A program made the translations under genes and the position numbers. The notes under the pieces are model-generated. The model was not told where the DNA came from. It ran no database searches and was given only the letters and a program-made list of their open reading frames with translations. A stretch of 64,000 nt of DNA, taken from the IMG/VR virus record IMGVR_UViG_3300015360_001243, positions 49,999 to 113,998 of that record; one strand, 5' to 3'. How positions within the stretch are numbered: position 1 is the first letter of the stretch; every line of letters starts with the position of its first letter. This stretch comes from a virus. Taxonomy: Duplodnaviria > Heunggongvirae > Uroviricota > Caudoviricetes. This document shows, one piece after another, positions 13,992-47,735 of this stretch.

Positions 13992-14048
13992 GGTTGTGGG
14001 AGATATATCCCTTAATAGATTATGTCCATTAGGTGCCCACGGTCTTAT

Positions 14049-14123: not shown

Positions 14124-14170
14124 TAGCGTCGAGAGGCGCTATTTTTATTTGTATTATTGGAAAAATTATT

Positions 14171-27884: not shown

Positions 27885-28450
27885 TGGGAAAAGCAATGAA
27901 TAGACAAGTTCTCGTCGTTGATGTCGAGAGCACCTGTTGGGAACCGCCTGAGTTCCAAGGCAAAGATGAAATCTCTGAAATAATTGAGATAGGTATCGCG
28001 GTTGTTGACATTGATAAGTTAACGATTATTGAAAATGACAGTATTATCATTAAGCCCCAAAGGTCAAAAGTCAGTAAATTCTGTACCAAATTAACTACTC
28101 TTACTCAAGAGTATGTGGACCAAGGGACCACCTTCCAGGCCGCTATGGAAATTCTGAGAAAGAATTATAATTCTCAGAATCGAACCATGGTAAGTTGGGG
28201 CGACTATGATCGAAAGATGTTTGAGAGGAACTGCGCCGACTATGGAGTCAAATACCCCTTTGGTCCTCGCCATATGAATCTTAAAAATACTTTCGCCATT
28301 TTTGAGGGGCTGGGCAGGGAACCGGGCATGGATGCCGCTTTAGGGCACCTGAGACTAAACCTGGTGGGTACGCATCATCGTGGAATAGATGATGCTCGAA
28401 ACATTGCTGAGATCTTTTGTAAGATAATTAAGATGTATCGTGTTGACTAA
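27884..28450 (+). CDS. DEDDh 3'-5' exonuclease (DnaQ/RNase T/oligoribonuclease-like)
   Basis: Exo I VVDVESTCWE, Exo II WGDYDRKMF and Exo III HRGIDDARN. Confidence 0.75.
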   Translation: MGKAMNRQVLVVDVESTCWEPPEFQGKDEISEIIEIGIAVVDIDKLTIIENDSIIIKPQRSKVSKFCTKLTTLTQEYVDQGTTFQAAMEILRKNYNSQNRTMVSWGDYDRKMFERNCADYGVKYPFGPRHMNLKNTFAIFEGLGREPGMDAALGHLRLNLVGTHHRGIDDARNIAEIFCKIIKMYRVD

Positions 28451-29337: not shown

Positions 29338-30447
29338 ATGAGTAACGCACTAAATCTTCAAGAAATTGATCAAGAACAAGCCCTACATTTAAGTAAGTTT
29401 TTTATTAGATCTCATCAAAACTTATTTCTATTTGGTCGCCGTGGCGTCGGTAAAACTCATATTGCTTTACAAGCCGCTAAAGAATGTGGGTTCAAAGTAA
29501 GTTATGTAAACCTTAGCGTTATTGAGAGACCCGATTTAGCTGGCTATCCTAATTTGAATACTCCGGGTGATGTGATTACTTTCAAATCACCTTCTTTCCT
29601 TCCTAAGTTATTGGATGCTAGTGCTGATACGATCATATTATTTGATGAAGTAGATAAGGCGCCGCCTGAAGTAACGGCCCCTCTTTTAGAGATTCTTCAA
29701 TTTAAAGCCATCAATGGAACGCCGCTTAATGTAGCTGGGTGTATTCTGACTGGCAATCTAATTAGTGAAGGAGCTTACTCCAATCAAATTAGTAGTGCTC
29801 TTTTAGATCGTGGCGCCAAGTATATCTTATCGTTCAACTTTGAAAAATGGATTGATTGGGCAAAGACTCATTTGGTTCACGATCTCATTCTTGGATTCTT
29901 GAGAAGTAATCCAGAGTTTGCCTGCGGAAAAATTGAAGATAGTTGTTATGCCAGTCCATCGCCAAGAGGTTGGACCTTAGCATCGGAGGCGTTGATTAAA
30001 GCGCGTGACCTCAAGATCGTGGATATAGATACGGTCACTCAGATTATTTCTGGGTTTGTAGGTGGCGAAGCCGGCCTTAGATTCAAAATTTGGTATGAAT
30101 ACTACCGTAGATTTGAGCCATACATTCACTCATTAATTGAGAGTGGAACAATGACCTTAGATTTCGCAGCATTAGCACCAACTGAAAAAATTGTTTTTGT
30201 TGTTGCCGCATGTTATTATGCTAAGCAAAAAGTCTTCTCTGAGTCGATCAAATCTAAGAATAGATTTGCATATCTAGAGAACTTATGTAAGTTCTTTGTC
30301 AACTATAAAGTTGACAGCGAATTACAAGTTATGGGGCTATACAACTCTTTCGATTTTGATATGATAGCAAAAAATAAACTCTATACTTGTAAAGAGTTTT
30401 TTGAACTATTCACGAAGATCAGTGAGAACGTTCCGCTAAGAAAATGA
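29338..30447 (+). CDS. AAA+ ATPase, CobS/MoxR-like (paralogue of 15913..17067)
   Basis: FGRRGVGKTHIALQ, LFDEVDKAPPEV and RPDLAGYPN, co-linear with the first copy. Confidence 0.7.
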   Translation: MSNALNLQEIDQEQALHLSKFFIRSHQNLFLFGRRGVGKTHIALQAAKECGFKVSYVNLSVIERPDLAGYPNLNTPGDVITFKSPSFLPKLLDASADTIILFDEVDKAPPEVTAPLLEILQFKAINGTPLNVAGCILTGNLISEGAYSNQISSALLDRGAKYILSFNFEKWIDWAKTHLVHDLILGFLRSNPEFACGKIEDSCYASPSPRGWTLASEALIKARDLKIVDIDTVTQIISGFVGGEAGLRFKIWYEYYRRFEPYIHSLIESGTMTLDFAALAPTEKIVFVVAACYYAKQKVFSESIKSKNRFAYLENLCKFFVNYKVDSELQVMGLYNSFDFDMIAKNKLYTCKEFFELFTKISENVPLRK

Positions 30448-31122: not shown

Positions 31123-31394
31123 TGAAATTTGCATTTGAAGGATTAATGATTGCGTTCTTGATCGCAATGTCTGTTTTGTTTATAGGTATCCCTTTAATCA
31201 AGATTGTAAAGATGATGCTGCCTGGTCCCAAGAAGGATTCCTTGAAGGAAGCGGCAGAAAGACTTGAAGTGGCCAAGAAAGAAGCTCAGGCCGCGCGTCT
31301 AAATAAAGAAACTGAGAAAGTGTATTCTGAACTTTATAGTGAAGTTTTGGAAGAAGATTCCTTAGAAGAAGAAAGTAATAGGAAGAAACTATGA
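31122..31394 (+). CDS. hypothetical membrane protein with a coiled-coil tail
   Basis: N-terminal transmembrane helix; ATGA overlaps. Confidence 0.4.
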   Translation: MKFAFEGLMIAFLIAMSVLFIGIPLIKIVKMMLPGPKKDSLKEAAERLEVAKKEAQAARLNKETEKVYSELYSEVLEEDSLEEESNRKKL

Positions 31395-32623
31395 ATAAAG
31401 ATGCGAATATGACGAAGTTAGTGGCGAAGCTTGTCGGAGGAGTCGTTGTACTCATCCTTGGCATTGTCTTCATTGCTAACTCAGTAACAACCGTTGCAGC
31501 CGATGAAATTGTCGTCAAACAGAATTTCTTTGATGGTAAGCTCCAAGTGTGGTCCTCACCCGGAGTCCATTGGCAGAATTTTGGACGATTGACTATCTAT
31601 AAGAGGTCCGCCCAATATTCTTTCGACATTACCCCTGCCGACCCCAACGTCAAAGACTCTAAGCCGCTTGACGAGACCATTCAAGTTAGATTCAATGATG
31701 GTGGTCATGGTAATGTTGGTGGTTCGTTGCGATTCGATCTGCCTACTGATGAACTTAAGATGGTTAAGCTTCATTCTACTTATCACTCTATGGAGGCAAT
31801 CAACAGAGATCTTATTCGACCAGTCGTCAATAAGTCTGTCTTCATGACTGGTCCACTTATGTCCAGCCGTGAGTCCTATGCTGAGAAGAGAGCTGACTTG
31901 ATTAGTCACATCTCAGACCAGATCCTTCATGGTGTCTATCGCACTGAGCGCCACACTTCTAAGGTAGTTGACATTATTTCTGGTCAAGAGAAGAACGTTG
32001 ATATGGTTCAACCAAAAATTGGTGCAACCGGAACCGAACGTGAAGAAGTAAGTCCTATCGAAACATTCGGTATAAATGCTTATAATATTGCTATCAATCG
32101 TATCAACTACGATCCCGCAATCGAGAAGCAGATTGAGCAACAGCAGCAAGCTACGATGGCCGTTCAACAGGCTATGGTTGATGCTCGTAAGGCTGAGCAA
32201 GCTGCCATCACTACCGCTAAGCAGGGTGAAGCCGAAGCTGCGAAGGCGAAGTGGGCACAGGAAGTTATCAAGGCCACTGAAATCACCAAGGCTCAACAGG
32301 ATAAGGATGTTGCTACCTTGCAAGCAACTAAGAACAAGGAAGTCGCGGCTCTTACCTTAGATACTGCTAAGCTAGAAGCTCAGACAACCATGACTAATGC
32401 TAAGGCTGACTCTGATGCGAGGAAGCTTGCTATCACGGCAGACAACGCTCTAGAGAAGAGATTGGATGCTTATGTAACTGTCCAAAAGGCTTGGGCAGCA
32501 GCTTATGGCGCACAACGTCAGACGCCTGATATCTCCTTGGGTGGAGGTAACGGCGGGACTAGTCAATCTCTTATTGAGATGATGACAGCCAAGACCGCGC
32601 GCGAACTAAACATCACCAAGTAA
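31391..32623 (+). CDS. SPFH/band-7-like membrane protein (HflK/C- or flotillin-like) with a Q/A/K-rich coiled coil
   Basis: N-terminal transmembrane helix, then EIVVKQNFFDGKLQVWSSPGVHWQNFGRL (SPFH-like), then a long coiled coil. Confidence 0.45.
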   Translation: MNKDANMTKLVAKLVGGVVVLILGIVFIANSVTTVAADEIVVKQNFFDGKLQVWSSPGVHWQNFGRLTIYKRSAQYSFDITPADPNVKDSKPLDETIQVRFNDGGHGNVGGSLRFDLPTDELKMVKLHSTYHSMEAINRDLIRPVVNKSVFMTGPLMSSRESYAEKRADLISHISDQILHGVYRTERHTSKVVDIISGQEKNVDMVQPKIGATGTEREEVSPIETFGINAYNIAINRINYDPAIEKQIEQQQQATMAVQQAMVDARKAEQAAITTAKQGEAEAAKAKWAQEVIKATEITKAQQDKDVATLQATKNKEVAALTLDTAKLEAQTTMTNAKADSDARKLAITADNALEKRLDAYVTVQKAWAAAYGAQRQTPDISLGGGNGGTSQSLIEMMTAKTARELNITK

Positions 32624-32666: not shown

Positions 32667-33143
32667 ATGAAGTATCCGAAAGTTCCAACCAAACCTTATG
32701 CCCCGTACAAACCTCAACCTCCTGCCAAGCAGATTGAGAAGAGTACGCCTATTGGCTCTACTGATTTTCATGAAGATTGCTCATATTCCCTTCAATCTTT
32801 TGAAGAATTTATTAAGGCCAATTCCACCGGAGCAACTCCTTCTGATGTCAAATTCTCTTGGGAAATTGAGAAAGAACCAACTTATTACGATGAGACTATT
32901 ATCTCACTCAAGATTAAATTCTTTACGGTTGCCTTGATTGATAATCCGCAGTATGATAGGCTGTATGCTTATTACGAAGAGCACCTAAAGAAGTATGAGA
33001 AAGATTATCAGAAGTATCGAGACAATCTAAAGCAATATAAGATCGATGAAATCCGTTACAAGGATGACCTTGAAACATGGACTCTTGATAATGCTAAAGA
33101 AACTATCAAAAGATTAGAAGCTAAAAAAGGTAAGAAAAAATGA
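32667..33143 (+). CDS. hypothetical protein
   Basis: ORF. Confidence 0.4.
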   Translation: MKYPKVPTKPYAPYKPQPPAKQIEKSTPIGSTDFHEDCSYSLQSFEEFIKANSTGATPSDVKFSWEIEKEPTYYDETIISLKIKFFTVALIDNPQYDRLYAYYEEHLKKYEKDYQKYRDNLKQYKIDEIRYKDDLETWTLDNAKETIKRLEAKKGKKK

Positions 33144-34075
33144 GTAAGGTTATAATGGTGGTCGGTTATCCGGCTTCAGGTAAGAGCACCCTCACCAAGG
33201 ATCTAGTGGCCAAGGGCGCCGTCTCCCTCAATCGAGACACGGAAGGTGGAACGATTGCCGCCCTGCTCCCCAAGATGGAAACTCTGTTGTTAGCCGGCAA
33301 AGATGTTGTACTTGACAACCTCTTCGTCAATCGTGAAGTCCGCAAACCCTTTATCGATATGGCTAAGAAGCATGACGCGGACATCTCCTGCCAATTGATG
33401 GGAACTTCAATTGAAGATGCCCAATTTAACGTAGTTCAAAGAGCCATCGGCTTGATTGGTAAATTTCCGACTCCGGAAGCCATTAAAGAGGCCAGGCATA
33501 CTAATATCTTTCCTCCTCTAGTTCTTTTCAAATACAAGAAAGAGTTTGAGAAGCCCACGACTGACGAAGGTTTCTCTAAAGTTGATCTGGTTAAGTTTGT
33601 TCGCAAGCAAGATCCATCATTCACCAACAAAGCTATTATTGTAGATTACGACGGAACGCTTCGTGAATGTATCAATGGTAATGATAAGTATCCGCTTACT
33701 GAAGATCAAGTTGAAATTAAGCCTGGACGTAAGGCGGTCCTTGACGACTACAGGGCGAAGGGTTATCATTTGCTCGGGCTCTCTAATCAAAGTGGCATTG
33801 CAAAGGGCGAGTTGAGCTATGACAAAGCAACTGACCTTTTCAATCATACCAATAAGCTACTTGGAGTTGATATCGAGTTTCGATTCTGCTCTCATCAATC
33901 TGCCCCTATCTTTTGTTACTGTAGAAAACCTATGAATGGCGTGGGCGTTGAATTCATTATGAAACATAAGCTCAGTGCTAGAGATTGTATCATGGTAGGC
34001 GACATGACCACCGACAAAACCTTTGCAGCACGTTCCGGGTTCCAGTACGTTGACCAGGCGGATTTCTTTAAATGA
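33140..34075 (+). CDS. polynucleotide 5'-kinase / 3'-phosphatase-like (P-loop kinase + HAD phosphatase), Pnk paralogue
   Basis: N-terminal Walker A GYPASGKST and C-terminal HAD motif IIVDYDGTL (DxDGT). Confidence 0.7.
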   Translation: MSKVIMVVGYPASGKSTLTKDLVAKGAVSLNRDTEGGTIAALLPKMETLLLAGKDVVLDNLFVNREVRKPFIDMAKKHDADISCQLMGTSIEDAQFNVVQRAIGLIGKFPTPEAIKEARHTNIFPPLVLFKYKKEFEKPTTDEGFSKVDLVKFVRKQDPSFTNKAIIVDYDGTLRECINGNDKYPLTEDQVEIKPGRKAVLDDYRAKGYHLLGLSNQSGIAKGELSYDKATDLFNHTNKLLGVDIEFRFCSHQSAPIFCYCRKPMNGVGVEFIMKHKLSARDCIMVGDMTTDKTFAARSGFQYVDQADFFK

Positions 34076-34338
34076 AAAGAAAGTTCAAAATTACTTTTGA
34101 GGTTGATTGCAATTACCCTTCTATTCATAAAGAAACTAAAAGACTTGCAAAAACTTTTGATGACTGGCTTCAAGATTGGGCAGATAGTGATAGTGCTCCC
34201 AAAGACATAATTCCAATATTATATACTGGCGCCCCAGGAATTGAGCACCAACCTAATGGAACTGTTAGAGTAAAAATTATAAGAGATGAAGAAATTATTC
34301 TTGATACATGGTGGGATGATCTATCAGATGATTTTTGA
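34072..34338 (+). CDS. hypothetical small protein
   Basis: ORF with an ATGA overlap. Confidence 0.35.
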   Translation: MKRKFKITFEVDCNYPSIHKETKRLAKTFDDWLQDWADSDSAPKDIIPILYTGAPGIEHQPNGTVRVKIIRDEEIILDTWWDDLSDDF

Positions 34339-34350
34339 AAAGTAAAATAA

Positions 34351-34833
34351 ATGAAATGTACTTCCTGCACATATCTCATAACTCGGGAGCCAGCAACAGA
34401 TTGTCAGTCTATTGCGCACTGGAAAGAGTGGGCCATTCTCCTTCAAGATAAACTTGAAAAACACGATGATGATCGTGACAAACTTGATGTGGCTGAGTGG
34501 CTAGAATCATATGAAAAAGTAAAAGATTATAAATGTCATGGATGTGGCAGGGATTATAATCTACCTACTCACATAGATCATTTTACTTGTGTTTGTGGCC
34601 ATCGTTCCAGATTGCGTCATTTGGGAGGGATGAACCCAGATCAGGCAGTTATAGACGCGGCAATAAGATATTTTGGTAATGAACGTTCGGCTCAATTGGC
34701 GTGGATTGCTGAGGTAGTTGGTGGACAGCACTGTTTACACTATACTGCTGATGAAATTAGAAACATGATTCGTCGAGAAATGGACCGTTGGATCCAAACT
34801 GATAGTGGATGGGAAAGAAAAGCGAGTAAGTAG
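34351..34833 (+). CDS. hypothetical Cys/His-rich (zinc-binding?) protein
   Basis: CTSC, CHGCG and CVCGH clusters. Confidence 0.4.
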   Translation: MKCTSCTYLITREPATDCQSIAHWKEWAILLQDKLEKHDDDRDKLDVAEWLESYEKVKDYKCHGCGRDYNLPTHIDHFTCVCGHRSRLRHLGGMNPDQAVIDAAIRYFGNERSAQLAWIAEVVGGQHCLHYTADEIRNMIRREMDRWIQTDSGWERKASK

Positions 34834-35002
34834 AATGATTGGTATCCAAGAGTTTAAAGGCGACCTGATCAAAATCGAACAGTTTCTAAACACAGACGCT
34901 GTAAAATTGGGTTGGAAAGTTTTATCTATTCAAAAGGTTCGTTGCTGGTATATATTCGGACCTGATGAGTACTTTGTCACATATGAGAAAGAAGATAAGT
35001 AA
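34805..35002 (+). CDS. hypothetical small protein
   Basis: ORF. Confidence 0.3.
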   Translation: MDGKEKRVSRMIGIQEFKGDLIKIEQFLNTDAVKLGWKVLSIQKVRCWYIFGPDEYFVTYEKEDK

Positions 35003-35003
35003 A

Positions 35004-35975
35004 ATGTTGAAGATTATCCTAACTGTTGGTATTCCGGCTTGTGGCAAGTCTACTTGGTCCAAAGAAGAGGTCAAGAAAGCGCCAGAGAAGGTTACGCGCA
35101 TCAATAGAGACGATCTACGTACGATGATGAGTAATTACCATTTTTCTGACGCTAATGAGAAGTTGGTTACCTCCACCAAAGAGTTCTTGCTACGCCAAGC
35201 ACTTCGCTATGGACGAGACGTCATCATTGATGAAACCAACCTCAATCGTCGAAACTTTGACGATGTGGTCAAGATCGTCAAGGATATGAACCTTGACTGT
35301 ATGGTAATGGAGAAACCTTTCTACGTTGAATTGGACGAAGCTATCGCTCGCGATAAGGAACGTCAGGGTGCTGGTTACGTGGGCGAGAGCGTTGTTCAGA
35401 AATTCTGGAAGAAGTCTGGTGGAAAGCAGCACAAACACTACAAGCCAAGGGTAGAAATTTGCCAGAGGCAGACTGAAGCCTCAGTAGCAGCGGCCGAAAT
35501 CTCTTTCAAGTCTCATCTTCCTACGGCCATTGTCTGTGACCTTGATGGAACTATTTCTCTCTTTAACTCAAAGAGAAGTGATGGATCAGTAGATGTTCGT
35601 CACTCTAAGGCGCACACCCGTAGCCCATACGATGCATCTAAGTCTGATGAAGATATGTTGAATGAGCCGGTTGCCTTAGTCATTGAAGCTATGTTCAATG
35701 CAGGTCACCATATTATTTTTTGCTCTGGTCGAGAAGATACTTATCGTGAGCAAACAGAACGCTTCCTTAAGAAGCACTTGAATATTCAGTACACTCTTCT
35801 TATGAGAAAAGGCGAAGACCTTCGCAAGGATTCGATTATCAAGTCGGAGATTTACGACGGACATATTGCTCCTAATTACAACGTCTTGTTTGTTCTAGAT
35901 GACCGTAATCAAGTGGTTGATCTATGGCGAAGCAAGGGACTATCATGTTGGCAGGTTGCCCCAGGTAATTTCTGA
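35004..35975 (+). CDS. pseT: polynucleotide kinase-phosphatase, T4 Pnk (pseT) orthologue
   Basis: MLKIILTVGIPACGKSTW..INRDDLR is near-identical in pattern to T4 Pnk MKKIILTIGCPGSGKSTW..INRDDYR. HAD motif IVCDLDGT. The C-terminal VLDDRNQVVDLWRSKGLSCWQVAPGNF aligns with T4 [26 protein letters not shown]. Confidence 0.9.
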   Translation: MLKIILTVGIPACGKSTWSKEEVKKAPEKVTRINRDDLRTMMSNYHFSDANEKLVTSTKEFLLRQALRYGRDVIIDETNLNRRNFDDVVKIVKDMNLDCMVMEKPFYVELDEAIARDKERQGAGYVGESVVQKFWKKSGGKQHKHYKPRVEICQRQTEASVAAAEISFKSHLPTAIVCDLDGTISLFNSKRSDGSVDVRHSKAHTRSPYDASKSDEDMLNEPVALVIEAMFNAGHHIIFCSGREDTYREQTERFLKKHLNIQYTLLMRKGEDLRKDSIIKSEIYDGHIAPNYNVLFVLDDRNQVVDLWRSKGLSCWQVAPGNF

Positions 35976-36068
35976 CATAATAATTTTTTATATGAATAAT
36001 CGCATATTGGAGCAATCTCCGAAACCAGCCGTTCAAATCAATTTTTGAAATTGGTGGTTTTTTAACAA

Positions 36069-36096
36069 TTGACATCCTAATTCGGATGATTAACAT
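36069..36096 (+). promoter_or_regulatory. possible sigma70-like promoter upstream of the RNA ligase gene
   Basis: TTGACA at 36069-36074, a 16-nt spacer and a weak TAACAT -10. Confidence 0.3.
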
Positions 36097-36107
36097 TAGA
36101 ACTAGAT

Positions 36108-36863
36108 ATGAAGCTGCCACGAACTTTACACATTGAGGGCTCCCGCCTTCCAGCCGGAGGCACAGATCCCGAGGCCATTGAATTTAATAAACTGAAAGAC
36201 CAATTTCTTGTAATTGAAGAGAAGGTTGATGGAACGGGTGTGTCCATTAGCCTTGACAAGCATTTTGATCTTAATATCAATCACCGAGGGTCAAAAGCCA
36301 TTGGTAAAGAATTTAAAGCTCTTTATGATTGGGCAGAAGACAATTGGGAAGACCTCGTCTATCTATTAGGTGAACGCTACACTCTCTTCGGAGAGTGGAT
36401 GCAGAATAAACATACTATCTTTTACGATAAGCTTCCCCATCGATTCCTTGAGTCAGATATCTATGATAGAGAAAAGAAAATTTGGCTTTCCACTAGTGCC
36501 CGCAATAATCTTTTGAATGGTGCCAAGTTTGTCAAGCAAGTTCCAGTAATTGCGGCCATGAAGCCCTCGGCTCTTTGGCAAGTCACTCAACTAGTTGGTA
36601 AGACAGCTTACCAGTCTCCGGAGTGGCAGAAGACACTTAAAGTTAAGTCGCAAATGTTCGGAGCCGATTATCAGAAGGTTCTATCTGAGACAGATCAAAC
36701 TGGAATGATGGAAGGCTTGTATATCAAGCATGAAGATGATTTTCAAGTTGTAGGTCGCTACAAATATGTAAGACATGAGTTTCTTCAATGTATTCTTAAT
36801 TCAGGATCTCATATAATGAATAGGCTACCAGTTTATAATGCGTTGGAGGGAGAAACATTCTAA
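36108..36863 (+). CDS. ATP-dependent RNA ligase, Rnl2-like nucleotidyltransferase domain
   Basis: Ligase motif I EEKVDGTGVS (KxDG). The 251-aa size matches the Rnl2 catalytic domain. Confidence 0.6.
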   Translation: MKLPRTLHIEGSRLPAGGTDPEAIEFNKLKDQFLVIEEKVDGTGVSISLDKHFDLNINHRGSKAIGKEFKALYDWAEDNWEDLVYLLGERYTLFGEWMQNKHTIFYDKLPHRFLESDIYDREKKIWLSTSARNNLLNGAKFVKQVPVIAAMKPSALWQVTQLVGKTAYQSPEWQKTLKVKSQMFGADYQKVLSETDQTGMMEGLYIKHEDDFQVVGRYKYVRHEFLQCILNSGSHIMNRLPVYNALEGETF

Positions 36864-37108
36864 TGATATTCGGAATCGCAATGTTAGTTGTGATTTACAT
36901 TCTGTGGGTGCTTTTTGTTGAAGGAGCACTCTGGAAAATTATCCTCTTCTTTGCCGGCTGGTTCGGCATTTACCTCGGAATGAAGGTATATATAGATGGC
37001 GCTGAAAAAATCTGTATGACCATTACAGATTACGATTTTAGTTGGGCCGCTGTGGTTCCGACCGTCGTTTGTATTATGGCCCTTCTAACCACTAAGGTAA
37101 AAGAATGA
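36863..37108 (+). CDS. hypothetical small membrane protein
   Basis: Two transmembrane helices; ATGA overlaps. Confidence 0.4.
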   Translation: MIFGIAMLVVIYILWVLFVEGALWKIILFFAGWFGIYLGMKVYIDGAEKICMTITDYDFSWAAVVPTVVCIMALLTTKVKE

Positions 37109-37512
37109 ATAAGCTCTATAAAGAAAATGGATTGCTCTCTGAGCATGGTGTCGTTGTTACTCATCCCGTTAAGATGGCTTGCTACAAGCTTCTAAACATC
37201 AATAATGAGATCAAGCAATTGTCTGAGGACGAGCTACGTACCCTTGGGGGTGCTCTTCAAAAGATTGTTGGAGATGCTATTTCTGAAAGAATTGCCTTTA
37301 AAAGAGAAGTTGCTACTAAGCTTGCTGAAATGAATGATGCTCAGTTTGAGGCCTTGCTTAAGGCTAAGTATGGTAGCAACTGGATGTTTCAAACTCTAAG
37401 TAATGAAGAACTTACTCGCTGCCCCAGAACACAACAACAAGAAATAGAAAACATTCTCAAAGAGAGTGCTAAGCACGTTACAAAATTTCCACGTAATGGT
37501 ATTAGGAAATAA
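37105..37512 (+). CDS. hypothetical protein
   Basis: ORF. Confidence 0.4.
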   Translation: MNKLYKENGLLSEHGVVVTHPVKMACYKLLNINNEIKQLSEDELRTLGGALQKIVGDAISERIAFKREVATKLAEMNDAQFEALLKAKYGSNWMFQTLSNEELTRCPRTQQQEIENILKESAKHVTKFPRNGIRK

Positions 37513-37514
37513 AA

Positions 37515-38777
37515 ATGTTACTCGTTCAAGAATATCTGTTGACACATACATTTGGTCAGTTGGCTGCTGAGCACGGAGTTTACGCTTCGTTTGCTAAAGC
37601 GGGCCACAAGTTTTCTTTGAACTATGATCAGATTGAAGCTAAAGAATCTAATCCATTGGCACAAGAATGTCGTGGCCTTGTCTTGGCGTCAAAGGACGGC
37701 CATATTCATACGCCAGTGATCAATCCTGGAGTCAAGCCTGACTTCAATCATATTTCTCCAGGTGAAACAACTATCCTTGCCTATCCAATGAATAGATTCT
37801 TCAATCATGGCCAGGGTTGTGCAGCCCAGATTGATTGGTCAGATCCTAAGCTTGCTATCCTGGAAAAGTTAGACGGTACGCTTTGCATTATCTATTTCGA
37901 TCTATTTACTGATAAGTGGTGTGTCGCAACTCGCTCTGTGTCTGAAGCGGACTTGTTGATGGATAATGGTTTGTTTACTTTCCGTACGCTCTTCGAAAAG
38001 GCTTTGACGGACACGACTGGTTACTCTTTCGATGTCTTCACCCGTTATCTTAATAAGGCTTATACTTATTGCTTTGAACTTACGACTCCGTACAACCGTA
38101 TCGTCGTAGATTATAAGAGCAATGGTATAACTTTGCTAGCAGTCCGAGGCCTGGTAACTCTTCAGGAATTGGATATGAAGCATCCGGTAGTTGATCTTCT
38201 GCCTACCAGCTTGCCAATCGTACAAGCACACACGTATACGTCTGTGGAAGATTTGGTCAATTGGGTATCTTCATTGAATCCAATGGAACATGAAGGCGTT
38301 GTAGTCCGAGACTCTAAGTTCAATCGTATCAAAGTTAAGAACGCTGCTTACGTGGCGTACAATAAACTTAATGATAAGTTAGGTTCCTCGGAACGTAATT
38401 GTATGCAGTTCATCCTTCTCGAAAAGGATGATGATGTTGCGAGCTTCCTTCCTGCGGATATCGTTAACAACATGCAGCAATTGAAAGAAGGATTACAAAA
38501 ATCAATTCATGAACATGATCTTGTTTATGATATTGCTAAAACTGTTGTTGATGTAGCAAACCCTGGAAGCAAAAAAGAATTTGCATTAGCCGTGCAAAAG
38601 GCTGTTGAACATGGTAAAACTATAAACAGAGTAATTTGGACTGCTCCTTTCTTTGCTATGTGGGATGGAAAAGCCTCTTCTATGAAGGACTTTATCCAGA
38701 AGAACCGAAAGAATGGAGAATGGGGCGACAGCTTCCTGGATAAACTCCTAGAAATGTCAAAACACCATTCAGCGTGA
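37515..38777 (+). CDS. rnlA: ATP-dependent RNA ligase 1-like (T4 RnlA / gene 63-like)
   Basis: Motif I ILEKLDGTLCIIYFD aligns with T4 Rnl1 ILTKEDGSLVSTYLD. The 420-aa size is comparable to T4 Rnl1 (374 aa). Confidence 0.65.
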   Translation: MLLVQEYLLTHTFGQLAAEHGVYASFAKAGHKFSLNYDQIEAKESNPLAQECRGLVLASKDGHIHTPVINPGVKPDFNHISPGETTILAYPMNRFFNHGQGCAAQIDWSDPKLAILEKLDGTLCIIYFDLFTDKWCVATRSVSEADLLMDNGLFTFRTLFEKALTDTTGYSFDVFTRYLNKAYTYCFELTTPYNRIVVDYKSNGITLLAVRGLVTLQELDMKHPVVDLLPTSLPIVQAHTYTSVEDLVNWVSSLNPMEHEGVVVRDSKFNRIKVKNAAYVAYNKLNDKLGSSERNCMQFILLEKDDDVASFLPADIVNNMQQLKEGLQKSIHEHDLVYDIAKTVVDVANPGSKKEFALAVQKAVEHGKTINRVIWTAPFFAMWDGKASSMKDFIQKNRKNGEWGDSFLDKLLEMSKHHSA

Positions 38778-38788
38778 TATAGAAAATT

Positions 38789-38823
38789 AAAGGGGTTAGC
38801 TTCCCAGCTAACCCCTTTCTTTT
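38789..38823 (+). terminator. rho-independent terminator after rnlA
   Basis: AAAGGGGTTAGC-TTCCCA-GCTAACCCCTTT followed by CTTTT. Confidence 0.85.
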
Positions 38824-38826
38824 ACC

Positions 38827-39378
38827 ATGAATAAATCTATTATATTCATTTCTGGTTGGGCGGTACCCGGATGGCTTGCTAAAAGCAGGTTTGTTTGGGA
38901 TGAAAGATTATGGTCCGATTACGAGTGCCTTTGGCTAGATAGTCGTACTCCAGCTTCTGACTGGATGATTAAATACGAATTAGATAGATTACAAAGGATA
39001 GTTGAAAGTCGCCCTGGCTGTGCTCTTATTGGGCAATCTTTGGGAGGATGGTGGGCCGCTAACCTAGCGTTACGTTTTGATGTTTCCATTAAGAAACTAG
39101 CTCTTTGGACTCCAGTATGTGATGCTAGTGCCTACCCAATTTTTAAGGCCAGCAGAGAGTTTCATCCACCCCTCCAGTTTCGTACTCAGAATCATGGACC
39201 AGCCAGAGTATTGACTTTAACGGCTAATCAAGATCTTATTGTTCCTCCAGATGCTCATGGACATGAGCTTAGTAAACATTTTGATAGTATGACCTATAAA
39301 TTAAAGGGTGGACATCTTTATCAATCTAATCATAAAGCAGCGCTCCAATATATGAAAGATTGGATAGAAACAGAATAA
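38827..39378 (+). CDS. alpha/beta-hydrolase fold esterase (YqiA/UPF0227-like)
   Basis: Nucleophile elbow GQSLGGWW (GxSxG). About 180 aa. Confidence 0.5.
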   Translation: MNKSIIFISGWAVPGWLAKSRFVWDERLWSDYECLWLDSRTPASDWMIKYELDRLQRIVESRPGCALIGQSLGGWWAANLALRFDVSIKKLALWTPVCDASAYPIFKASREFHPPLQFRTQNHGPARVLTLTANQDLIVPPDAHGHELSKHFDSMTYKLKGGHLYQSNHKAALQYMKDWIETE

Positions 39379-39402
39379 TGGCATTCTGATATATAAATAA
39401 GT

Positions 39403-40113
39403 ATGAACAAATACTTATTTGAGTCTGACTTTAGTGCCGATTCGCTTAGATGGCATCAAACACGCGAACAAAATACGGGCAAAATGTCAGTAGAGGAGTT
39501 AGAAAAACTCCAAACAGAGATTTTATCTTCTAAAGATTCCGCCCTTGCTTATTTCTTTGCCGCTGAATTTGGTTATCAAACCTGGAAAATGCAGCAAATA
39601 ATTATAGAGAATAAAGATGCTAAGTACGCTTTCTTGTTTGCTCAGAATATAAGAAACTGTGATATCAAAGCTTTACAGAAACTAGTCACTGATTCTAAGA
39701 AGACCAAATACATTTGCAAATTTGCTTGCTTCGTTAAGGGCGCAGACCGCAAGCCCTTAGAATCAATCATATTGAATTCAAAGAACGTCAAGTATGCCCA
39801 TATGTTTCTCAAACATGTTAAGGGCTCAGACGTTACTAAATTTAAAGGATTGATTATGGATTCAGGGAAGCCACGTTATTTATTTGAATTAGCCAAGCAT
39901 ACAAAGAAGCTAGATGAGATATCTAAAATAGAAGACCTAATTATAGCAGCGGGGTCATTTACTTATATGAGACTCTTTGCCGAAAAGATTAAACTCGCTA
40001 ATATTGAAAAACTTGAGCAGGCCGTATTAGATTCAGATAATATAATTGAGATAAAAAAATTCGCTAAGTATGTTAAGCGCTCTAAAATGAAAAGATTTTT
40101 CTTAGTCTTATAA
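39403..40113 (+). CDS. hypothetical protein
   Basis: ORF. Confidence 0.45.
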   Translation: MNKYLFESDFSADSLRWHQTREQNTGKMSVEELEKLQTEILSSKDSALAYFFAAEFGYQTWKMQQIIIENKDAKYAFLFAQNIRNCDIKALQKLVTDSKKTKYICKFACFVKGADRKPLESIILNSKNVKYAHMFLKHVKGSDVTKFKGLIMDSGKPRYLFELAKHTKKLDEISKIEDLIIAAGSFTYMRLFAEKIKLANIEKLEQAVLDSDNIIEIKKFAKYVKRSKMKRFFLVL

Positions 40114-40788
40114 ATGATCTGCATCGCAATGATGAATCTTACAGAAAGCTATTAGATCTTTCTTAGTAATGTGATCAGCGCCTGCTGGTAGTATCGTCCC
40201 ATCATCTAATATAATTTGCGAGTATGGATACATAAGCGTATTGAGATTTGACATCCCATCTAAATGCTTTATTCCCAATGAGTGACCCAATTCGTGGAGC
40301 ACTACTTCTTTGAAATTATCTCCCAGTCTCTCAGAAACTATTGAGATACTTGGCAAAGCATCGTGATGGTAAACTCCTAGAGTTTCACCACCTTCAAGAT
40401 CCATTAAAATAATAGTCGTATCATCTGGAGATTTTTTGACAACAAATACAGAATCAGTATACTTCATAGGCTCATTTGTTGGAAGTTGAATGATATCGTA
40501 TTCAATACGATGATTAGTCGCCATTGACCATTCTAAAGCTGCCTTCGTGATCAAATCGGTCTCTATATTATCAAAGGTTCGATCTAAGTATAAAGTAACG
40601 TGAGCGTGTTCCGGCCAGTCTCGGGCCCCTGGATATATCTTAGCTACAAAGCTGTAAAGTGTTAGTATTGTCACTAGAATTAGTGTTAAACATAAATAGT
40701 GAATAACTTTAGGTAACTTCATATCTTGCCCTCTGATACTATAACTGGCCAAAAAGATATACAAATTTATTGATATCGGTGACATCAT
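40108..40788 (-). CDS. membrane-anchored metzincin-type zinc metalloprotease
   Basis: HELGHSLGIKH (HExxHxxGxxH). The N-terminus is hydrophobic (transmembrane or signal anchor). It is on the minus strand inside a plus-strand block. Confidence 0.65.
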   Translation of the reverse strand: MMSPISINLYIFLASYSIRGQDMKLPKVIHYLCLTLILVTILTLYSFVAKIYPGARDWPEHAHVTLYLDRTFDNIETDLITKAALEWSMATNHRIEYDIIQLPTNEPMKYTDSVFVVKKSPDDTTIILMDLEGGETLGVYHHDALPSISIVSERLGDNFKEVVLHELGHSLGIKHLDGMSNLNTLMYPYSQIILDDGTILPAGADHITKKDLIAFCKIHHCDADHL

Positions 40789-41449
40789 GGACTCTCCAAA
40801 ATATAATAGAACATTTCATATGCCTTGGAGCCCTGGCGCTACCAATGACGATAAGATAGCGGATTCGGTAAGTTATCTTATCAACCAACCTATTGTTATT
40901 ACTGAAAAAATAGACGGCTCTAATACATCATTGGAATTAAAGGGATGTTTCGCTAGAACGCATTCTGGTCCCCCGACTCATCAATCTTTCGATGAATTGA
41001 AGGCCTTGCACGCCCAAATTGCATTTGATATTCCTGATAACTTTCAGTTATTTGGCGAGTGGTGTTATGCTAAGCATTCTATTGCTTACAGTGAATTACC
41101 CAGTTATTTCTTGCTATTTGGCGTTAGAGAACTACTTGAAGGTCAAAACTATTGGTATTCTTGGGAAGATGTAGAGAATTTTGCCCTACTATTTAATCTG
41201 GATACTGTGCCAGTTCTATTTAAAGGAACAGTTTCTTCAGAGAAAGACCTTCAACAATTAGTTGAATCTTTTATGATTCAACCGTCTGCTTGCGGTGGTA
41301 TAAGAGAGGGCGTAGTGGCCAGAGTGGAATCAGAATTTATTGATGATGCTTTCGGTCAATGCGTGCTAAAATGTGTTCGAGCTAATCATGTTCAAACTTC
41401 AGAGCATTGGAAAGATCAAGAGATCATTAAGAATAAACTAAAGTTATGA
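40787..41449 (+). CDS. ATP-dependent RNA ligase, Rnl2-like nucleotidyltransferase domain (third ligase)
   Basis: Motif I TEKIDGSNTSLE (cf. T4 Rnl2 KIHGTN), 220 aa. Confidence 0.55.
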   Translation: MDSPKYNRTFHMPWSPGATNDDKIADSVSYLINQPIVITEKIDGSNTSLELKGCFARTHSGPPTHQSFDELKALHAQIAFDIPDNFQLFGEWCYAKHSIAYSELPSYFLLFGVRELLEGQNYWYSWEDVENFALLFNLDTVPVLFKGTVSSEKDLQQLVESFMIQPSACGGIREGVVARVESEFIDDAFGQCVLKCVRANHVQTSEHWKDQEIIKNKLKL

Positions 41450-41540
41450 ATTACGAGAGGCTTGACGACCATATTTTCATGGTTACTTTTTATGTGAATA
41501 ACGAGACATTGAGGCGAGGGGAATAACAAGGATCGTTCAA

Positions 41541-41801
41541 ATGAGTATTAGAAAATTTCATTTCATGAGATTGGAAGATGCGTCGGGCGTAAGTGGTTGC
41601 GGTATCGTTGCAGAAGGTGTTATCTTTTCAAACGGCAAGGTTGCTTTAGAGTGGTTCGGTGAACACTCCAGCACTAACGTTTATGATAGCCTTGCAGACG
41701 TGGAATACATTCATGGTCATGGGGGTCGTACACGTATTGTGTTCGATGAAGAGGCTCCGGAGTGTCCAAAGAAAGAAGAAGTTAATAAGGATGTTAAGTA
41801 A
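41541..41801 (+). CDS. hypothetical small protein
   Basis: ORF. Confidence 0.35.
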   Translation: MSIRKFHFMRLEDASGVSGCGIVAEGVIFSNGKVALEWFGEHSSTNVYDSLADVEYIHGHGGRTRIVFDEEAPECPKKEEVNKDVK

Positions 41802-42519
41802 GTCCCGAACAATATTAATTGGTGATATTCACGGTTGTATCGATGAGTTTAACGAGCTTGTGAATGCTCTCTCCTATAATAAGGAGACGGATAGACTCAT
41901 TTTGTTGGGCGACTTAATTGATCGCGGTCCAGACTCTGTTGGCGTGGTTGCCAAAGCAAGAGAAATGGATCTTGAATGTGTCATGGGTAATCATGAGCAT
42001 GCATTCCTAAAGTGGTATAAAAGTGTTGGTACCAGGAATGATGTGTATGATCGACGTCCTTATTACTCCGAGTTCTCAGATGCTGATGTTAATTACATCC
42101 ATCGAATGAGTGAGTATATTCATATTCCCGAACAAAACACTGTAATCGTCCACGCCGGATTGCGTGGCGGTATTCCTCTGGCTCAACAGCGCAGAGACGA
42201 CCTATTTTATATTAGGTACATGGATTCTGATAAGAAGTTCATTAGTCTCAAAAAGATTAATAGACTTGGTAAAGATGCAACGGATGCACACTTCTGGACT
42301 GATAACTGGTATGGTCCAGAGTCAGTAGTGTACGGGCACAACGTACACTCGTATGAAGAACCGCTGATTACGGAAGTGGCTCCTGGGGTTAAATGTTATG
42401 GTTTGGATACTGGTTGCTGCTTCGGCGGCAAGCTTACTGCTATGGTCTTAGAAACCAAGCAGGTTGTTCAGGTTCAAGCTAAGCGGGCATACTATGGATC
42501 AAAGTTCAATATAAGATGA
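41791..42519 (+). CDS. PPP-family Ser/Thr/phospho-ester phosphatase (lambda-phosphatase / ApaH-like)
   Basis: IGDIHGC, LLGDLIDRGPDS and GNHE motifs. The start is set to the internal ATG at 41791. Confidence 0.75.
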   Translation: MLSKSRTILIGDIHGCIDEFNELVNALSYNKETDRLILLGDLIDRGPDSVGVVAKAREMDLECVMGNHEHAFLKWYKSVGTRNDVYDRRPYYSEFSDADVNYIHRMSEYIHIPEQNTVIVHAGLRGGIPLAQQRRDDLFYIRYMDSDKKFISLKKINRLGKDATDAHFWTDNWYGPESVVYGHNVHSYEEPLITEVAPGVKCYGLDTGCCFGGKLTAMVLETKQVVQVQAKRAYYGSKFNIR

Positions 42520-42881
42520 ATTACACAGAAAACCAACTTAGCGAATTAGCTAAAACCAATCCGAAAGAACTAGCGCACATATTAACCAGCTCCAGCGTCA
42601 ACATAAGAGTGTTGACATTCGGGGCTGAAATTTTAGGAGGGGAAGTTACAGACGAGTCAATCGTCCTTCCGGTTCTAAGTCGCTTAATAAAACATGTTAA
42701 TGCCATTGTCAGAGAGGGAGCTGCCATTGGCATTTCGTCTTTCTACAGTTCAACAAAACCGCCCCAAGATATATTAGACAGGTTGAAGTTCATGTCTACT
42801 AATGATCCTTCACCTGCATTACGTGACACAGTCAAAAGTATGTTAGAGGATTATAAAATAGATGAAAGAGCGCAAGACTGA
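42516..42881 (+). CDS. hypothetical protein
   Basis: ORF with an ATGA overlap. Confidence 0.4.
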   Translation: MNYTENQLSELAKTNPKELAHILTSSSVNIRVLTFGAEILGGEVTDESIVLPVLSRLIKHVNAIVREGAAIGISSFYSSTKPPQDILDRLKFMSTNDPSPALRDTVKSMLEDYKIDERAQD

Positions 42882-43377
42882 TTTATTCGAAACAATTTAT
42901 GAAGATGATGTTGATGCCATCTGTATAACTACAAATGGTCAATACACCATTCACGGTATTGCCGCCATGGGCGGTGGCTGCGCAGGTATTTGCGCTAGAC
43001 GCTGGCCAGAAACAGCGCAGAGACTTGGGCGCATGCTAAAAACCTTTGGAACTAATATTCCATTTGTTATTGGTGCGCTAGATGAAGATGGAAATCATAT
43101 AGAACCAACTAGAGATGGAATAAAGAATAAGCAGTTTAAATGTCTTATCTTTAGTTTCCCCACCATTAATAACTTGATGAATGGTTCTAATATTCAATTG
43201 ATTAAACAATCGGCGACCCTTCTTGTAGATTACGTTGATCAATTTGGATTAAAAAATATAATGGTGCCCAGAATGGGAGTTGGGATCGGCGGGTTGCGCT
43301 GGGCTGATGTGAAACCAGAAGTAGAAAATATTCTTGATGACCGCTTTACAGTAGTCTCATTTGATCATGAGGAATAA
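42862..43377 (+). CDS. macro-domain-like protein (second copy; ADP-ribose binding/hydrolase candidate)
   Basis: DAICITTNGQYTIHGIAAMGGGCAGICARRWPE (cf. DAIVNAAN..LLGGGGVDGAI.RAAG) and IMVPRMGVGIGGLRW (cf. IAFPAISTGIYG). Confidence 0.55.
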   Translation: MKERKTDLFETIYEDDVDAICITTNGQYTIHGIAAMGGGCAGICARRWPETAQRLGRMLKTFGTNIPFVIGALDEDGNHIEPTRDGIKNKQFKCLIFSFPTINNLMNGSNIQLIKQSATLLVDYVDQFGLKNIMVPRMGVGIGGLRWADVKPEVENILDDRFTVVSFDHEE

Positions 43378-43542: not shown

Positions 43543-44217
43543 ATGGGTAAGTATCGTCAAATCATTGATATTGATGGACACAATTCTGCTGCGCACATTC
43601 TCAAAAATGTGAGACCTAATTCTACTGTTGTAGAGTTTGGGCCAGCTAGTGGGTATATGACTCAATATTTAAAAGAGTCTTTAGCTTGTAAGGTTACTAT
43701 TCTAGAACTAGATTACGATGATGGGCTAGAGGCGTCTAAGTACGCTGATGAATCATTAATTGGATATCCCAACGGGGACATTGAAATGTGGCAATGGATT
43801 AATTTTGATCCCGTTGATCATGTTATTTTTGCTGACGTGTTAGAGCATTTGCGAGACCCATGGAAAGTCTTGGTTCGTGCGGCCAAGATCATTAAAAATG
43901 ATGGTTCTATTCTTATTTCTATTCCTAACATAGGGCACAATTCGGTGATTATTGATTTAATCAATAACAAATTTAATTATAGGGAAACTGGATTATTAGA
44001 TAATACTCATCTTAGATTCTTTACTAGAGAAAGTTTAGCTCAGATGGTTGTCGATGCCGGTTTAGTTATTGAAAACGAATTCAATACTTATTGCGCCGTT
44101 GAACATACCGAGTTTCAAAATTCATTCGATGCTGTTCCCGAGTCTGTCGCGGAAATATTAAAAGCCAGGCCAGATGGCAATCTGTACCAATTTGTTTGGG
44201 AACTAAAAAAGGAATAA
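43543..44217 (+). CDS. class I SAM-dependent methyltransferase
   Basis: Motif I VVEFGPASGYMTQYL and a post-I acidic ILELD. Confidence 0.6.
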   Translation: MGKYRQIIDIDGHNSAAHILKNVRPNSTVVEFGPASGYMTQYLKESLACKVTILELDYDDGLEASKYADESLIGYPNGDIEMWQWINFDPVDHVIFADVLEHLRDPWKVLVRAAKIIKNDGSILISIPNIGHNSVIIDLINNKFNYRETGLLDNTHLRFFTRESLAQMVVDAGLVIENEFNTYCAVEHTEFQNSFDAVPESVAEILKARPDGNLYQFVWELKKE

Positions 44218-46943: not shown

Positions 46944-47735
46944 ATGTCTAATATAAAGCTCAAAGATAGAATGATCTCTTATCGGGATAATTCTGACCAC
47001 AAATTAATGGCCCGAGTCCCGTTGGTTATCACCATCAATGGTCGCGCTTTTGCCAAAGGCAGCGAGCTTTTAGACAAACCATATGATTCGAAATTCTCGG
47101 AATGTATCCTATCTACTACTTTAAAACTTTGTAATGAGATTGAGGGTGCGCTCTTTGGATACCAGCACAATGATGAGATCGTTATCATTGCTCGTAATGA
47201 TCAAAGTCCAGACACTAGCCCCTGGTATGACAATAGGGTTCAAAAGATTTGCTCTGTTACTTCTTCGATTGCTACGATGCATTTTAATAGTTGTGCCAAT
47301 GCAATTGAATTGAATATGATTTCGGAGCCAATCTTTACTTCACAGGTATATACACTCCCTAATATTGCTGAGGCCGTCAATGCAATGATTTTCAAACAGC
47401 AACAGAATTTTCATACATCTGTGCAGTTTGCTTGTTTTTATGAACTTCTTGCCAAGAAGTTTGACAAGCATCATATTAAAGAGATGTTAAATGGGTTAAG
47501 CGTGGATGAGAAAATTGATTTGTTAGACCAAGAATGTAGAATCAACTTTAACGAATACCCAATGGCTTTTAAGCGCGGAGTAGCTTGCTACAAAGTACCT
47601 AAGGTAACAAATGGTGTAGTGAAGAACAAATGGATGCTTAATCCTGATTTACCAATTTTCACTAAGGATCAATCATTCTTATCTAATATCTTTAAGAATG
47701 GCGCGGATATTTTTAGACAAGAGAGTATTGAATGA
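46944..47735 (+). CDS. hypothetical protein
   Basis: ORF. Confidence 0.45.
   Translation: MSNIKLKDRMISYRDNSDHKLMARVPLVITINGRAFAKGSELLDKPYDSKFSECILSTTLKLCNEIEGALFGYQHNDEIVIIARNDQSPDTSPWYDNRVQKICSVTSSIATMHFNSCANAIELNMISEPIFTSQVYTLPNIAEAVNAMIFKQQQNFHTSVQFACFYELLAKKFDKHHIKEMLNGLSVDEKIDLLDQECRINFNEYPMAFKRGVACYKVPKVTNGVVKNKWMLNPDLPIFTKDQSFLSNIFKNGADIFRQESIE

Follow-up and report, generated by a model that had tools for sequence, protein, structure and literature searches.

Bacteriophage T4 repairs tRNA against PrrC with a polynucleotide kinase-phosphatase (Pnk) and the RNA ligase Rnl1, and bacteria possess related systems of the Pnkp-Hen1 and Pnkp1-Rnl-Hen1 type. For jumbo phages, the stacking of RNA-repair enzymes against host RNases has already been published by Iyer et al. 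(2021; PMC7824862, section 3.4.9), who describe combinations of Rnl1, several Rnl2-family ligases, PNK-HAD enzymes, calcineurin-like phosphatases, RlaP and Macro domain proteins, including three Rnl2 paralogues in XacN1 and RtcB, Rnl1 and Rnl2 in BcepSauron. These authors reach the same interpretation as we do here and argue that the phage ligases are non-redundant, each being specialised for different RNases. In this study, we analysed a gene island within a 64,000-nucleotide stretch of a Caudoviricetes virus (IMG/VR record IMGVR_UViG_3300015360_001243, positions 49,999 to 113,998), referred to as the window. As Iyer et al. describe the same repertoire, we regard the island as a further case of these arsenals, which refines the published picture.

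The island probably forms the central part of a system with which an uncultured huge phage repairs breaks in RNA, above all in tRNA. Host ribotoxins, e.g. anticodon nucleases, would cut RNA and leave 2',3'-cyclic phosphate or 3'-phosphate together with 5'-OH ends, which the T4-type Pnk would heal by means of its 5'-kinase and 3'-phosphatase, probably assisted by a second kinase-phosphatase (PNKP2) and perhaps by an ApaH/Pnkp-like metallophosphoesterase. An RNase T-like exonuclease would trim damaged ends, RlaP and a Thg1-like enzyme would refill them, and three ATP-dependent ligases would seal, with the Rnl1-type ligase acting on single-stranded loops and two stand-alone ligases of the Rnl2/Rnl5 structural clade (RnlS1 and RnlS2) on nicks in duplex regions. 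We infer the substrates, this division of labour and the role in counter-defence from homology, from active sites that are intact and from the conserved gene context; that the counter-defence is layered can reasonably be inferred. An earlier sequence-only reading had placed two kinase-phosphatases, three RNA ligases and a phosphatase between 33140 and 42519. Every open reading frame (ORF) named there exists at its position with a family assignment far beyond chance, and at the family level the enzymes are what they had been called, with catalytic residues that are intact and conserved.

The window is 99.95–100% identical to public metagenome contigs (JGI samples 3300020180 and 3300020213; SRR6448207), from which precomputed Pfam tables were carried over. 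It is phage-like, with 96 of 102 ORFs on a single strand and a coding fraction of 92%, and encodes rIIA and rIIB homologues. When the 9.4-kb block was compared with 50,697 phage records by megablast, no match was obtained; relatives exist at the protein level only, and the closest protein matches come from uncultured phage genomes of 460–640 kb (accessions LR7565xx). Comparison with 24 related loci on IMG/VR contigs, the longest of which measures 473 kb, revealed the same gene order in about 17 of them, on contigs of 120–470 kb: AAA – thioredoxin – (Band-7) – PNKP2 – Pnk – (RnlS1) – two small ORFs – Rnl1 – repeat protein – (metallopeptidase) – RnlS2 – Acb5 – phosphoesterase – (HEAT) – Macro – zinc ribbon. 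At least four loci have the complete set of five enzymes for healing and sealing. Family membership, intact catalytic residues and conserved gene order are established.

The island is larger than the block initially delimited, which is flanked by genes for RlaP, the RNase T-like exonuclease, the Band-7 protein, the Macro domain protein and the Thg1-like enzyme (Table 1). RlaP belongs to a family that takes its name from an association with RNA ligases; its gene is located 6 kb upstream, outside the range of the sequence-only reading, and the Thg1-like gene 4 kb downstream; bacterial Thg1-like proteins repair 5'-truncated tRNAs. The RlaP, RNase T-like, Band-7 and Thg1-like flanks strengthen, together with the conserved order, the assignment to RNA repair, which is also based on the presence of a peptidyl-tRNA hydrolase, an IF3 homologue, an aminoacyl-tRNA synthetase, 17 tRNAs and a transfer-messenger RNA (tmRNA) in the same window. 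The RNA-repair 'syntax' of Burroughs and Aravind (2016), in the form given by Iyer et al. (PMC7824862), comprises a ligase, end-processing enzymes, a nucleotidyltransferase and a scaffold; ligases, kinase, phosphatase and the RlaP nucleotidyltransferase are co-located here.

Table 1. Features of the island and of the surrounding window. Coordinates are those of the window unless a separate locus is named.
Feature	Position	Strand	Match or remark
Class I (Trp/Tyr-type) aminoacyl-tRNA synthetase homologue	14033–15133		
RlaP, RNA-ligase-associated Pol-beta nucleotidyltransferase	26384–27496	+	PF10127 1.5e-17; same match precomputed on identical contig
RNase T-type DEDD exonuclease, candidate 3'-end trimmer	27884–28450	+	PF00929 4.8e-18
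SPFH/Band-7 protein	31391–32623	+	PF01145 1.1e-7; directly upstream of kinase-phosphatases
PNKP2, N-terminal PNKP-like P-loop kinase and C-terminal HAD-IIIA phosphatase with zinc loop	33140–34075	+	family and structure matches, motifs
Pnk, T4-type polynucleotide 5'-kinase/3'-phosphatase	35004–35975	+	family and PDB matches, active-site residues
RnlS1, stand-alone nucleotidyltransferase-domain RNA ligase	36108–36863	+	PF09414 3.2e-23
Two small ORFs (81 residues, membrane-like; 135 residues)	36863–37512	+	between RnlS1 and Rnl1; no significant family match
Rnl1-family RNA ligase	37515–38777	+	PF09511, phrog_562, motif residues
Hairpin, perfect 13-bp stem followed by CTTTT on the + strand, terminator-like	38789–38818		directly after Rnl1 stop codon
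Small alpha/beta-hydrolase-like protein, accessory gene	38827–39378	+	sub-threshold Pfam matches (E about 1e-3)
Helical-repeat protein, six repeats of ~33 residues, consensus KYAxxFAxxIxxADIKxLxxxVxxS	39403–40113	+	
Membrane-anchored zincin (HExxHxxGxxH) metallopeptidase-like protein	40108–40788	-	PF00413 1.3e-5
RnlS2, stand-alone nucleotidyltransferase-domain RNA ligase	40787–41449	+	PF09414 3.8e-30; phrog_24030 9.5e-45
Acb5-family (anti-CBASS 5) protein, 86 residues	41541–41801	+	precomputed PF26761 on identical contig; overlaps phosphoesterase start
Binuclear metallophosphoesterase, ApaH/ALPH/bacterial-Pnkp-phosphatase clade	41746–42519	+	
Macro domain protein, DarG-like	42862–43377	+	NF048014 4.9e-11; PF01661 3.5e-4
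Thg1-like 3'-5' nucleotidyltransferase, candidate tRNA 5'-end repair	46944–47735	+	PF04446 6.4e-19; PF14413 2.6e-5
PTH2 peptidyl-tRNA hydrolase	52824–53135		
IF3 homologue	56047–56583		
Aldo/keto reductase fusion relatives of PNKP2	locus L036, 8001–10478		P0380, P0393, P0403, P0511, P0517

Pnk and the three RNA ligases

The Pnk orthologue proposed in the sequence-only reading was confirmed by matches to PF25109 HAD_PNKP (8.9e-45, 152.8 bits, cut-off 27.6) and phrog_505 (1.4e-83), as well as to the solved structures of Pnkp1 (4xrp, 4.5e-47) and T4 Pnk (1ltq, 2.8e-33), with 36% identity to the T4 enzyme. Alignment with 20 relatives revealed no substitution at any of the 13 active-site positions of T4 Pnk that were checked, namely K15, S16, D35, R38 and R126 of the N-terminal P-loop kinase, which the window protein shares, and D165 and D167 of the DxDxT motif, R176, R213, D254, K258, D277 and D278 of the C-terminal HAD phosphatase. 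The protein is therefore a T4-type Pnk, for which both kinase and phosphatase activity are predicted. Because it resembles Pnkp1 of the Pnkp1-Rnl-Hen1 system, a methyltransferase encoded at 43543–44217 was tested as a Hen1 candidate; it was rejected, as it matches only the generic methyltransferase 3cc8 and is kept in one related locus.

The Rnl1-like ligase was likewise borne out, by PF09511 (6e-15, 56.1 bits, cut-off 28.3), phrog_562 (1.9e-36) and the residues of motifs I, III, IV and V. The positions corresponding to K99, D101, G102, E159, E227, G228, K240 and K242 of T4 Rnl1 are kept in 24 of 24 relatives and that of R54 in 23, and the K75 position is occupied by arginine in all relatives. 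The score against TIGR02308, the T4 RnlA equivalog (56.1 bits, cut-off 242), does not reach the cut-off, and the C-terminal region aligns weakly with that of T4 Rnl1, which forms the tRNA-specific C-terminal domain. Directly behind the gene, the hairpin listed in Table 1 probably acts as a terminator, so that the island would comprise two or more transcription units.

RnlS1 and RnlS2 had been called Rnl2-type ligases. A PF09414 ligase domain with KxDG and motifs III and IV is indeed present in both, but they are not Rnl2 in the strict sense, having no C-terminal domain and a K-x-V-R sequence as motif V. The two proteins (251 and 220 residues, respectively, with 31% identity over their N-terminal halves) end 25–30 residues past motif V, and their models show no extra domain; the C-terminal helical domain of Rnl2 and the N-terminal accessory domain of Rnl5 are both absent. 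Approximately 36 homologues were aligned for each. The motif I lysine, which lies within E-K-x-D-G, is invariant in the two families, as are FGEW (motif III) and EG (motif IV). In RnlS2 the invariant positions are K41-x-D43-G44, FGEW89-92 and E174-G175, accompanied by a conserved N-terminal KYxRTxH sequence. Motif V reads K-x-V-R and not K-x-K in both families; its first lysine and its arginine are invariant in RnlS1, and in RnlS2, where it reads K-C-V-R, K195 and R198 are kept in at least 90% of the sequences. As far as we searched the literature, this motif V of bare-nucleotidyltransferase ligases has not been described, and searches on minimal or stand-alone RNA ligases returned nothing.

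PDB sequence searches with RnlS1 and RnlS2 gave nothing significant, even with the family profile (E 0.18 for T4 Rnl2), and structure prediction was therefore used. AlphaFold2 models with pLDDT (predicted local distance difference test) values of 93.4 for RnlS1 and 83.7 for RnlS2 were searched with Foldseek, and RNA ligases ranked first for both, those of the nick-sealing type being placed ahead of DNA ligases and capping enzymes; for RnlS2, RNA ligases scored 7.6e-7 to 1.7e-4 and DNA ligases 6e-4 or weaker. The sequence-only reading had allowed for ORFs that lack the catalytic lysine or turn out to be DNA ligases or capping-type enzymes. The KxDG lysine proved invariant and Foldseek favours RNA ligases; judged by their models, both proteins are RNA-ligase-type nucleotidyltransferases of the Rnl2/Rnl5/REL nick-sealing structural clade and not DNA ligases or capping enzymes. 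Homologues of RnlS2 with 37–40% identity occur in the cultured jumbo phages XacN1, Atu_ph07, CcrSC, SCTP-2 and Phosso. These ligases could show whether an RNA ligase works without an accessory domain or needs one in trans.

These assignments also bear on the idea that the kinase-phosphatases and small ligases mend 3'-phosphate/5'-OH nicks in phage DNA, either during replication or after host nuclease attack. T4 Pnk accepts DNA in addition to RNA, and the solved structure nearest to the PNKP2 kinase is that of mammalian PNKP, which repairs DNA. However, neither an OB domain nor a DNA-binding latch is present, Pfam and PHROG both assign the ligases to RNA ligase families, and the genes stand in a context of RlaP, a Thg1-like enzyme and tRNA genes. 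We therefore consider DNA repair highly improbable.

PNKP2, the phosphoesterase, Acb5 and the Macro domain protein

The island could also be mixed, in that only Pnk, the three ligases, RlaP and the Thg1-like enzyme repair RNA. Acb5, the metallophosphoesterase and the Macro domain protein would then destroy immune signals (cyclic GMP-AMP (cGAMP), its 2',3'-cyclic nucleoside monophosphate (2',3'-cNMP) products, diadenosine tetraphosphate (Ap4A) and ADP-ribose derivatives), and PNKP2 would be a kinase/phosphatase of small molecules such as sugar phosphates or other metabolites. We regard this as possible but rather doubtful.

The phosphoesterase, which most likely starts at 41746 or 41791 and not with the GTG of 41659, matches Metallophos PF00149 (3.1e-14, 54.3 bits, cut-off 21.5), and its translation contains the metal-binding motifs GDIHG, GDLIDRG and GNHE(H). 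It had been described as a lambda-phosphatase-like PPP enzyme; membership of the PPP superfamily holds, but among solved structures it is nearer to an ApaH-like protein (2qjc, 4e-31) than to lambda phosphatase (3.6e-7), with further matches to ApaH (4.6e-19) and the CthPnkp phosphatase (4j6o, 5.7e-13). The ApaH equivalog level is not reached with either NF001204 (2.3e-30, 105.8 bits against a cut-off of 176) or TIGR00668 (78.4 against 222.85). A match to positions 184–420 of TIGR04075 (8.6e-24) spans the full phosphatase module of Pnkp, an RNA-repair enzyme of bacteria, which speaks against a mixed island.

A signalling-nucleotide role of this enzyme is considered because its gene overlaps that of Acb5. 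Acb5 is a recently described enzyme directed against the cyclic oligonucleotide-based antiphage signalling system (CBASS); it cuts 3'3'-cGAMP into 2',3'-cyclic NMPs, and the phosphoesterase family includes 2',3'-cyclic phosphodiesterases as well as Ap4A hydrolases. The window protein is 50–60% identical to proteins of Streptomyces, Mycobacterium, Bacillus and Haloarcula phages, which corresponds to the published distribution of Acb5, and possesses R10, W38 and H58/H60, compared with the essential R10, W38 and H61 of Acb5A, the histidine register not being aligned to Acb5A. Its gene is kept beside the phosphoesterase in related huge-phage loci. On the other side, the two inspected Streptomyces phages do not show this pairing, their Acb5 homologues standing without such a phosphoesterase. 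The gene pair was not found in the literature, as far as searched. In Streptomyces phage LilMartin, the Acb5 homologue (4004–4291) is surrounded by an array of tRNA genes, and a Ro-like RNA-binding protein is encoded 2 kb away.

The Macro domain gene is kept in 13 related loci, and the best NCBIfam match of its product is the antitoxin DarG, a DNA ADP-ribosyl glycohydrolase. This DarG likeness is in line with a mixed island; the protein could counter DarT-type defence or strip ADP-ribose from nucleic-acid ends. Taken together, Acb5, the phosphoesterase and the Macro domain protein may form a sub-block that targets signalling nucleotides instead of RNA ends.

PNKP2 is the most conserved protein of the block, with 74–89% identity across more than 120 metagenomic clusters. 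Its kinase (residues 3–153) and HAD domain (164–304) match AAA_33 (2.2e-11), PNK3P (2.2e-5) and HAD-IIIA (3e-19), without an FHA domain, and the score against TIGR01663 for eukaryotic-type PNKP is 85 bits against a cut-off of 502.8. Among 26 homologues, G9-x4-GKST, NRD33, D169xD171GT, S215NQ, C250xH252...C259xC261-R-K263-P and GD288...D292 are invariant. The combination of kinase and HAD phosphatase had been recognised correctly, but the protein is not a paralogue of Pnk: an alignment of the two is restricted to the P-loop region (30% over 105 residues), and their HAD domains fall into different subfamilies. When 1.84 billion representative proteins were searched exhaustively, 3214 relatives of PNKP2 were found; an aldo/keto reductase domain is located at the N-terminus of 51 of the top 150. 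The long relatives had been expected to be ligase-kinase-phosphatase fusions, which was rejected; the bacterial fusions consist of aldo/keto reductase, kinase and HAD-IIIA domains and comprise 590–1060 residues (e.g. MEM1178980.1 of Acidobacteriota). On a 5-Mb bacterial contig, the genes next to such a fusion are unrelated to RNA repair. Literature searches combining aldo/keto reductase with PNK retrieved no paper on the fusion, and as far as we searched, neither a PNKP-like kinase-phosphatase with a zinc loop nor its bacterial reductase fusions have been described.

Several observations weigh against RNA repair as the role of the island, and those on PNKP2 and on the Acb5 overlap also speak for a mixed one. 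The nearest non-phage relatives of PNKP2 are the bacterial aldo/keto reductase fusions, which stand in no RNA-repair context, and its HAD domain, with a zinc loop of the GmhB/HisB type, scores better against these sugar-phosphate phosphatases than against DNA 3'-phosphatase. A phosphoesterase gene that overlaps Acb5 and is followed by a Macro domain gene fits the degradation of nucleotide signals equally well. Both RnlS ligases are devoid of any accessory RNA-binding domain, and T4 Rnl2 deprived of its C-terminal domain, reportedly examined by Ho and colleagues (Ho et al.) in 2004, is said to be unable to complete nick sealing. In addition, all functions were derived from homology and context. 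For PNKP2, in contrast, the kinase is nearest to that of mammalian PNKP (mouse 1yj5, residues 226–363, 1.7e-15), including the FxxPTxxEGF stretch, and in the conserved order of repair genes its neighbours are Band-7 and Pnk. The phage gene context thus favours a polynucleotide as the likely substrate of PNKP2; the fusions and the zinc loop would be compatible with a small molecule.

The reductase fusion of the bacterial relatives suggests a pathway for chemically damaged termini, and PNKP2 may accordingly represent an uncharacterised class of end-healing enzymes for such termini. An aldehydic or oxidised end would be reduced to a hydroxyl group and then phosphorylated, and a 3' or 2' phosphate would be removed; of this pathway, the kinase-phosphatase part would have been acquired by the phage for use in RNA repair, and the bare ligases would need a partner in trans, e.g. 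the repeat protein encoded at 39403–40113. We put this proposal forward as an unlikely, speculative extension of RNA repair. PNKP2 and the bacterial aldo/keto reductase fusions form an uncharacterised family of enzymes with abundant members in metagenomes.

tRNA genes and further genes of the window

The sequence-only reading had counted at least 21 tRNAs. This number was not reproduced: the window holds 16 according to ARAGORN or 17 according to Rfam, plus one tmRNA. A tRNA at 54330–54401 was called by Rfam (37.7 bits) and missed by ARAGORN. The phage-encoded tmRNA (49181–49532, 123.6 bits in Rfam) specifies the tag peptide ANDNAFAPLALAA. A tRNA at 54552–54626, labelled tRNA-Pyl by ARAGORN, has the anticodon CTA and is an amber suppressor. 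Among the 102 ORFs, 3 end with TAG, 59 with TAA and 40 with TGA, and a coding density of 92% under the standard code argues against wholesale recoding in the window.

This gene set leads to a further possibility, i.e. that the enzymes mature or maintain the phage's own tRNAs and tmRNA, with the Rnl1 homologue possibly serving as a tail-fibre attachment factor like T4 gp63. The 17 tRNAs, the tmRNA, the Thg1-like enzyme, PTH2, IF3 and the aminoacyl-tRNA synthetase within one window would fit such housekeeping, and a second function of Rnl1 is recorded in phrog_562 and in the T4 annotation. However, ARAGORN and Rfam detected no split or permuted tRNA gene in the window that would need ligation, and the strict conservation of the Rnl1 active site in 24 of 24 relatives would not be required for a purely structural role. 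We thus judge housekeeping to be improbable as an explanation and retain the repair of RNA breaks as the probable function.

The additional genes of the island differ in their conservation. The Band-7 gene is found at the same position in 5 related loci; at gathering thresholds, Rfam detected only tRNAs and the tmRNA in the window and no Band-7-associated tRNA-like RNA near 31–33 kb. The two small ORFs gave tblastn matches in 11–17 related loci, always just upstream of Rnl1. The alpha/beta-hydrolase-like protein contains a GQSLGG nucleophile elbow (GxSxG) and plausible Asp and His residues, with all Pfam scores below gathering, and its gene occurs in just 3 of the 24 related loci. The helical-repeat protein is present in 19 of 24, between Rnl1 and RnlS2, and has no match in Pfam, PHROGs or NCBIfam.

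Two further groups of genes lie upstream. A MoxR-like AAA+ ATPase (29338–30447) is accompanied, 10 kb upstream, by a DUF2201 (vWA-metallopeptidase-type) protein (17122–18831), a pair that has been described in jumbo phages of group 2.2 as a chaperone system (Iyer et al. 2021, PMC7824862). The genes at 6433–6864, 7816–8622, 9442–10092 and 10666–11136 encode a NADAR protein (9.5e-34), an R2K ATP-grasp protein, a second calcineurin-like phosphoesterase and a YpsA/SLOG-like protein, and look like a further block that processes NAD/ADP-ribose or nucleotides.

Its two types of kinase-phosphatase and its three ligases with two architectures, together with RlaP, the exonuclease and the Thg1-like enzyme, could make the well-conserved island a compact test bed for studying how the repair enzymes of phages are fitted to different ribotoxins of their hosts.

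Comparison with known systems

Compared with the T4 pathway, the window Pnk retains all kinase and phosphatase active-site residues and the window Rnl1 the residues of motifs I, III, IV and V. The differences are that Pnk is nearer to bacterial Pnkp1 than to T4 Pnk, that Rnl1 is only ~26% identical to its T4 counterpart and stays below the RnlA cut-off, and that the T4 genes are separate, whereas the window groups five healing and sealing enzymes in one conserved island. RnlS1 and RnlS2 differ from T4 Rnl2 by the missing C-terminal helical domain and by K-x-V-R in place of K-x-K, and from the Naegleria and Deinococcus Rnl5 enzymes (NgrRnl and DraRnl) by the missing domain in front of the nucleotidyltransferase domain.

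The bacterial systems resemble the island in that Capnocytophaga Pnkp1 (4xrp) is the best match of the window Pnk, that the phosphoesterase matches the Pnkp phosphatase module (TIGR04075 and 4j6o) and that Pnk, the phosphoesterase and Rnl1 match successive parts of phrog_8238, the profile of a kinase-phosphoesterase-ligase fusion. Unlike in the Pnkp-Hen1 and Pnkp1-Rnl-Hen1 systems, these modules are separate genes in the window, which contains no Hen1. The best solved match of the phosphoesterase over its full length is the Trypanosoma brucei ApaH-like protein 2qjc; in contrast to ApaH, the window protein scores below the equivalog cut-off and is encoded in a phage context beside Acb5 and RNA ligases. 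With mammalian PNKP, a DNA 5'-kinase/3'-phosphatase, PNKP2 shares the P-loop, the catalytic aspartate of NRDT and the C-terminal FxxPTxxEGF stretch in the kinase and the DxDGT, SNQ and RKP motifs in the phosphatase. It differs from that enzyme in its reversed domain order (kinase, then phosphatase), the lack of FHA and the CxH...CxC zinc loop in its phosphatase, as in GmhB/HisB.

The closest overall likeness is to the jumbo-phage arsenals (PMC7824862), with which the window shares Rnl1, several Rnl2-family ligases, PNK-HAD, a calcineurin-like phosphatase, RlaP, a Macro domain protein and many tRNAs. In contrast to these, the clade of the window is uncultured and without megablast match in the phage records, no RtcB (present, e.g., in BcepSauron), 2H or KptA gene was seen in the window, and a full-length PNKP2 occurs in just 2 of the 50,697 phage records, both from uncultured huge phages.

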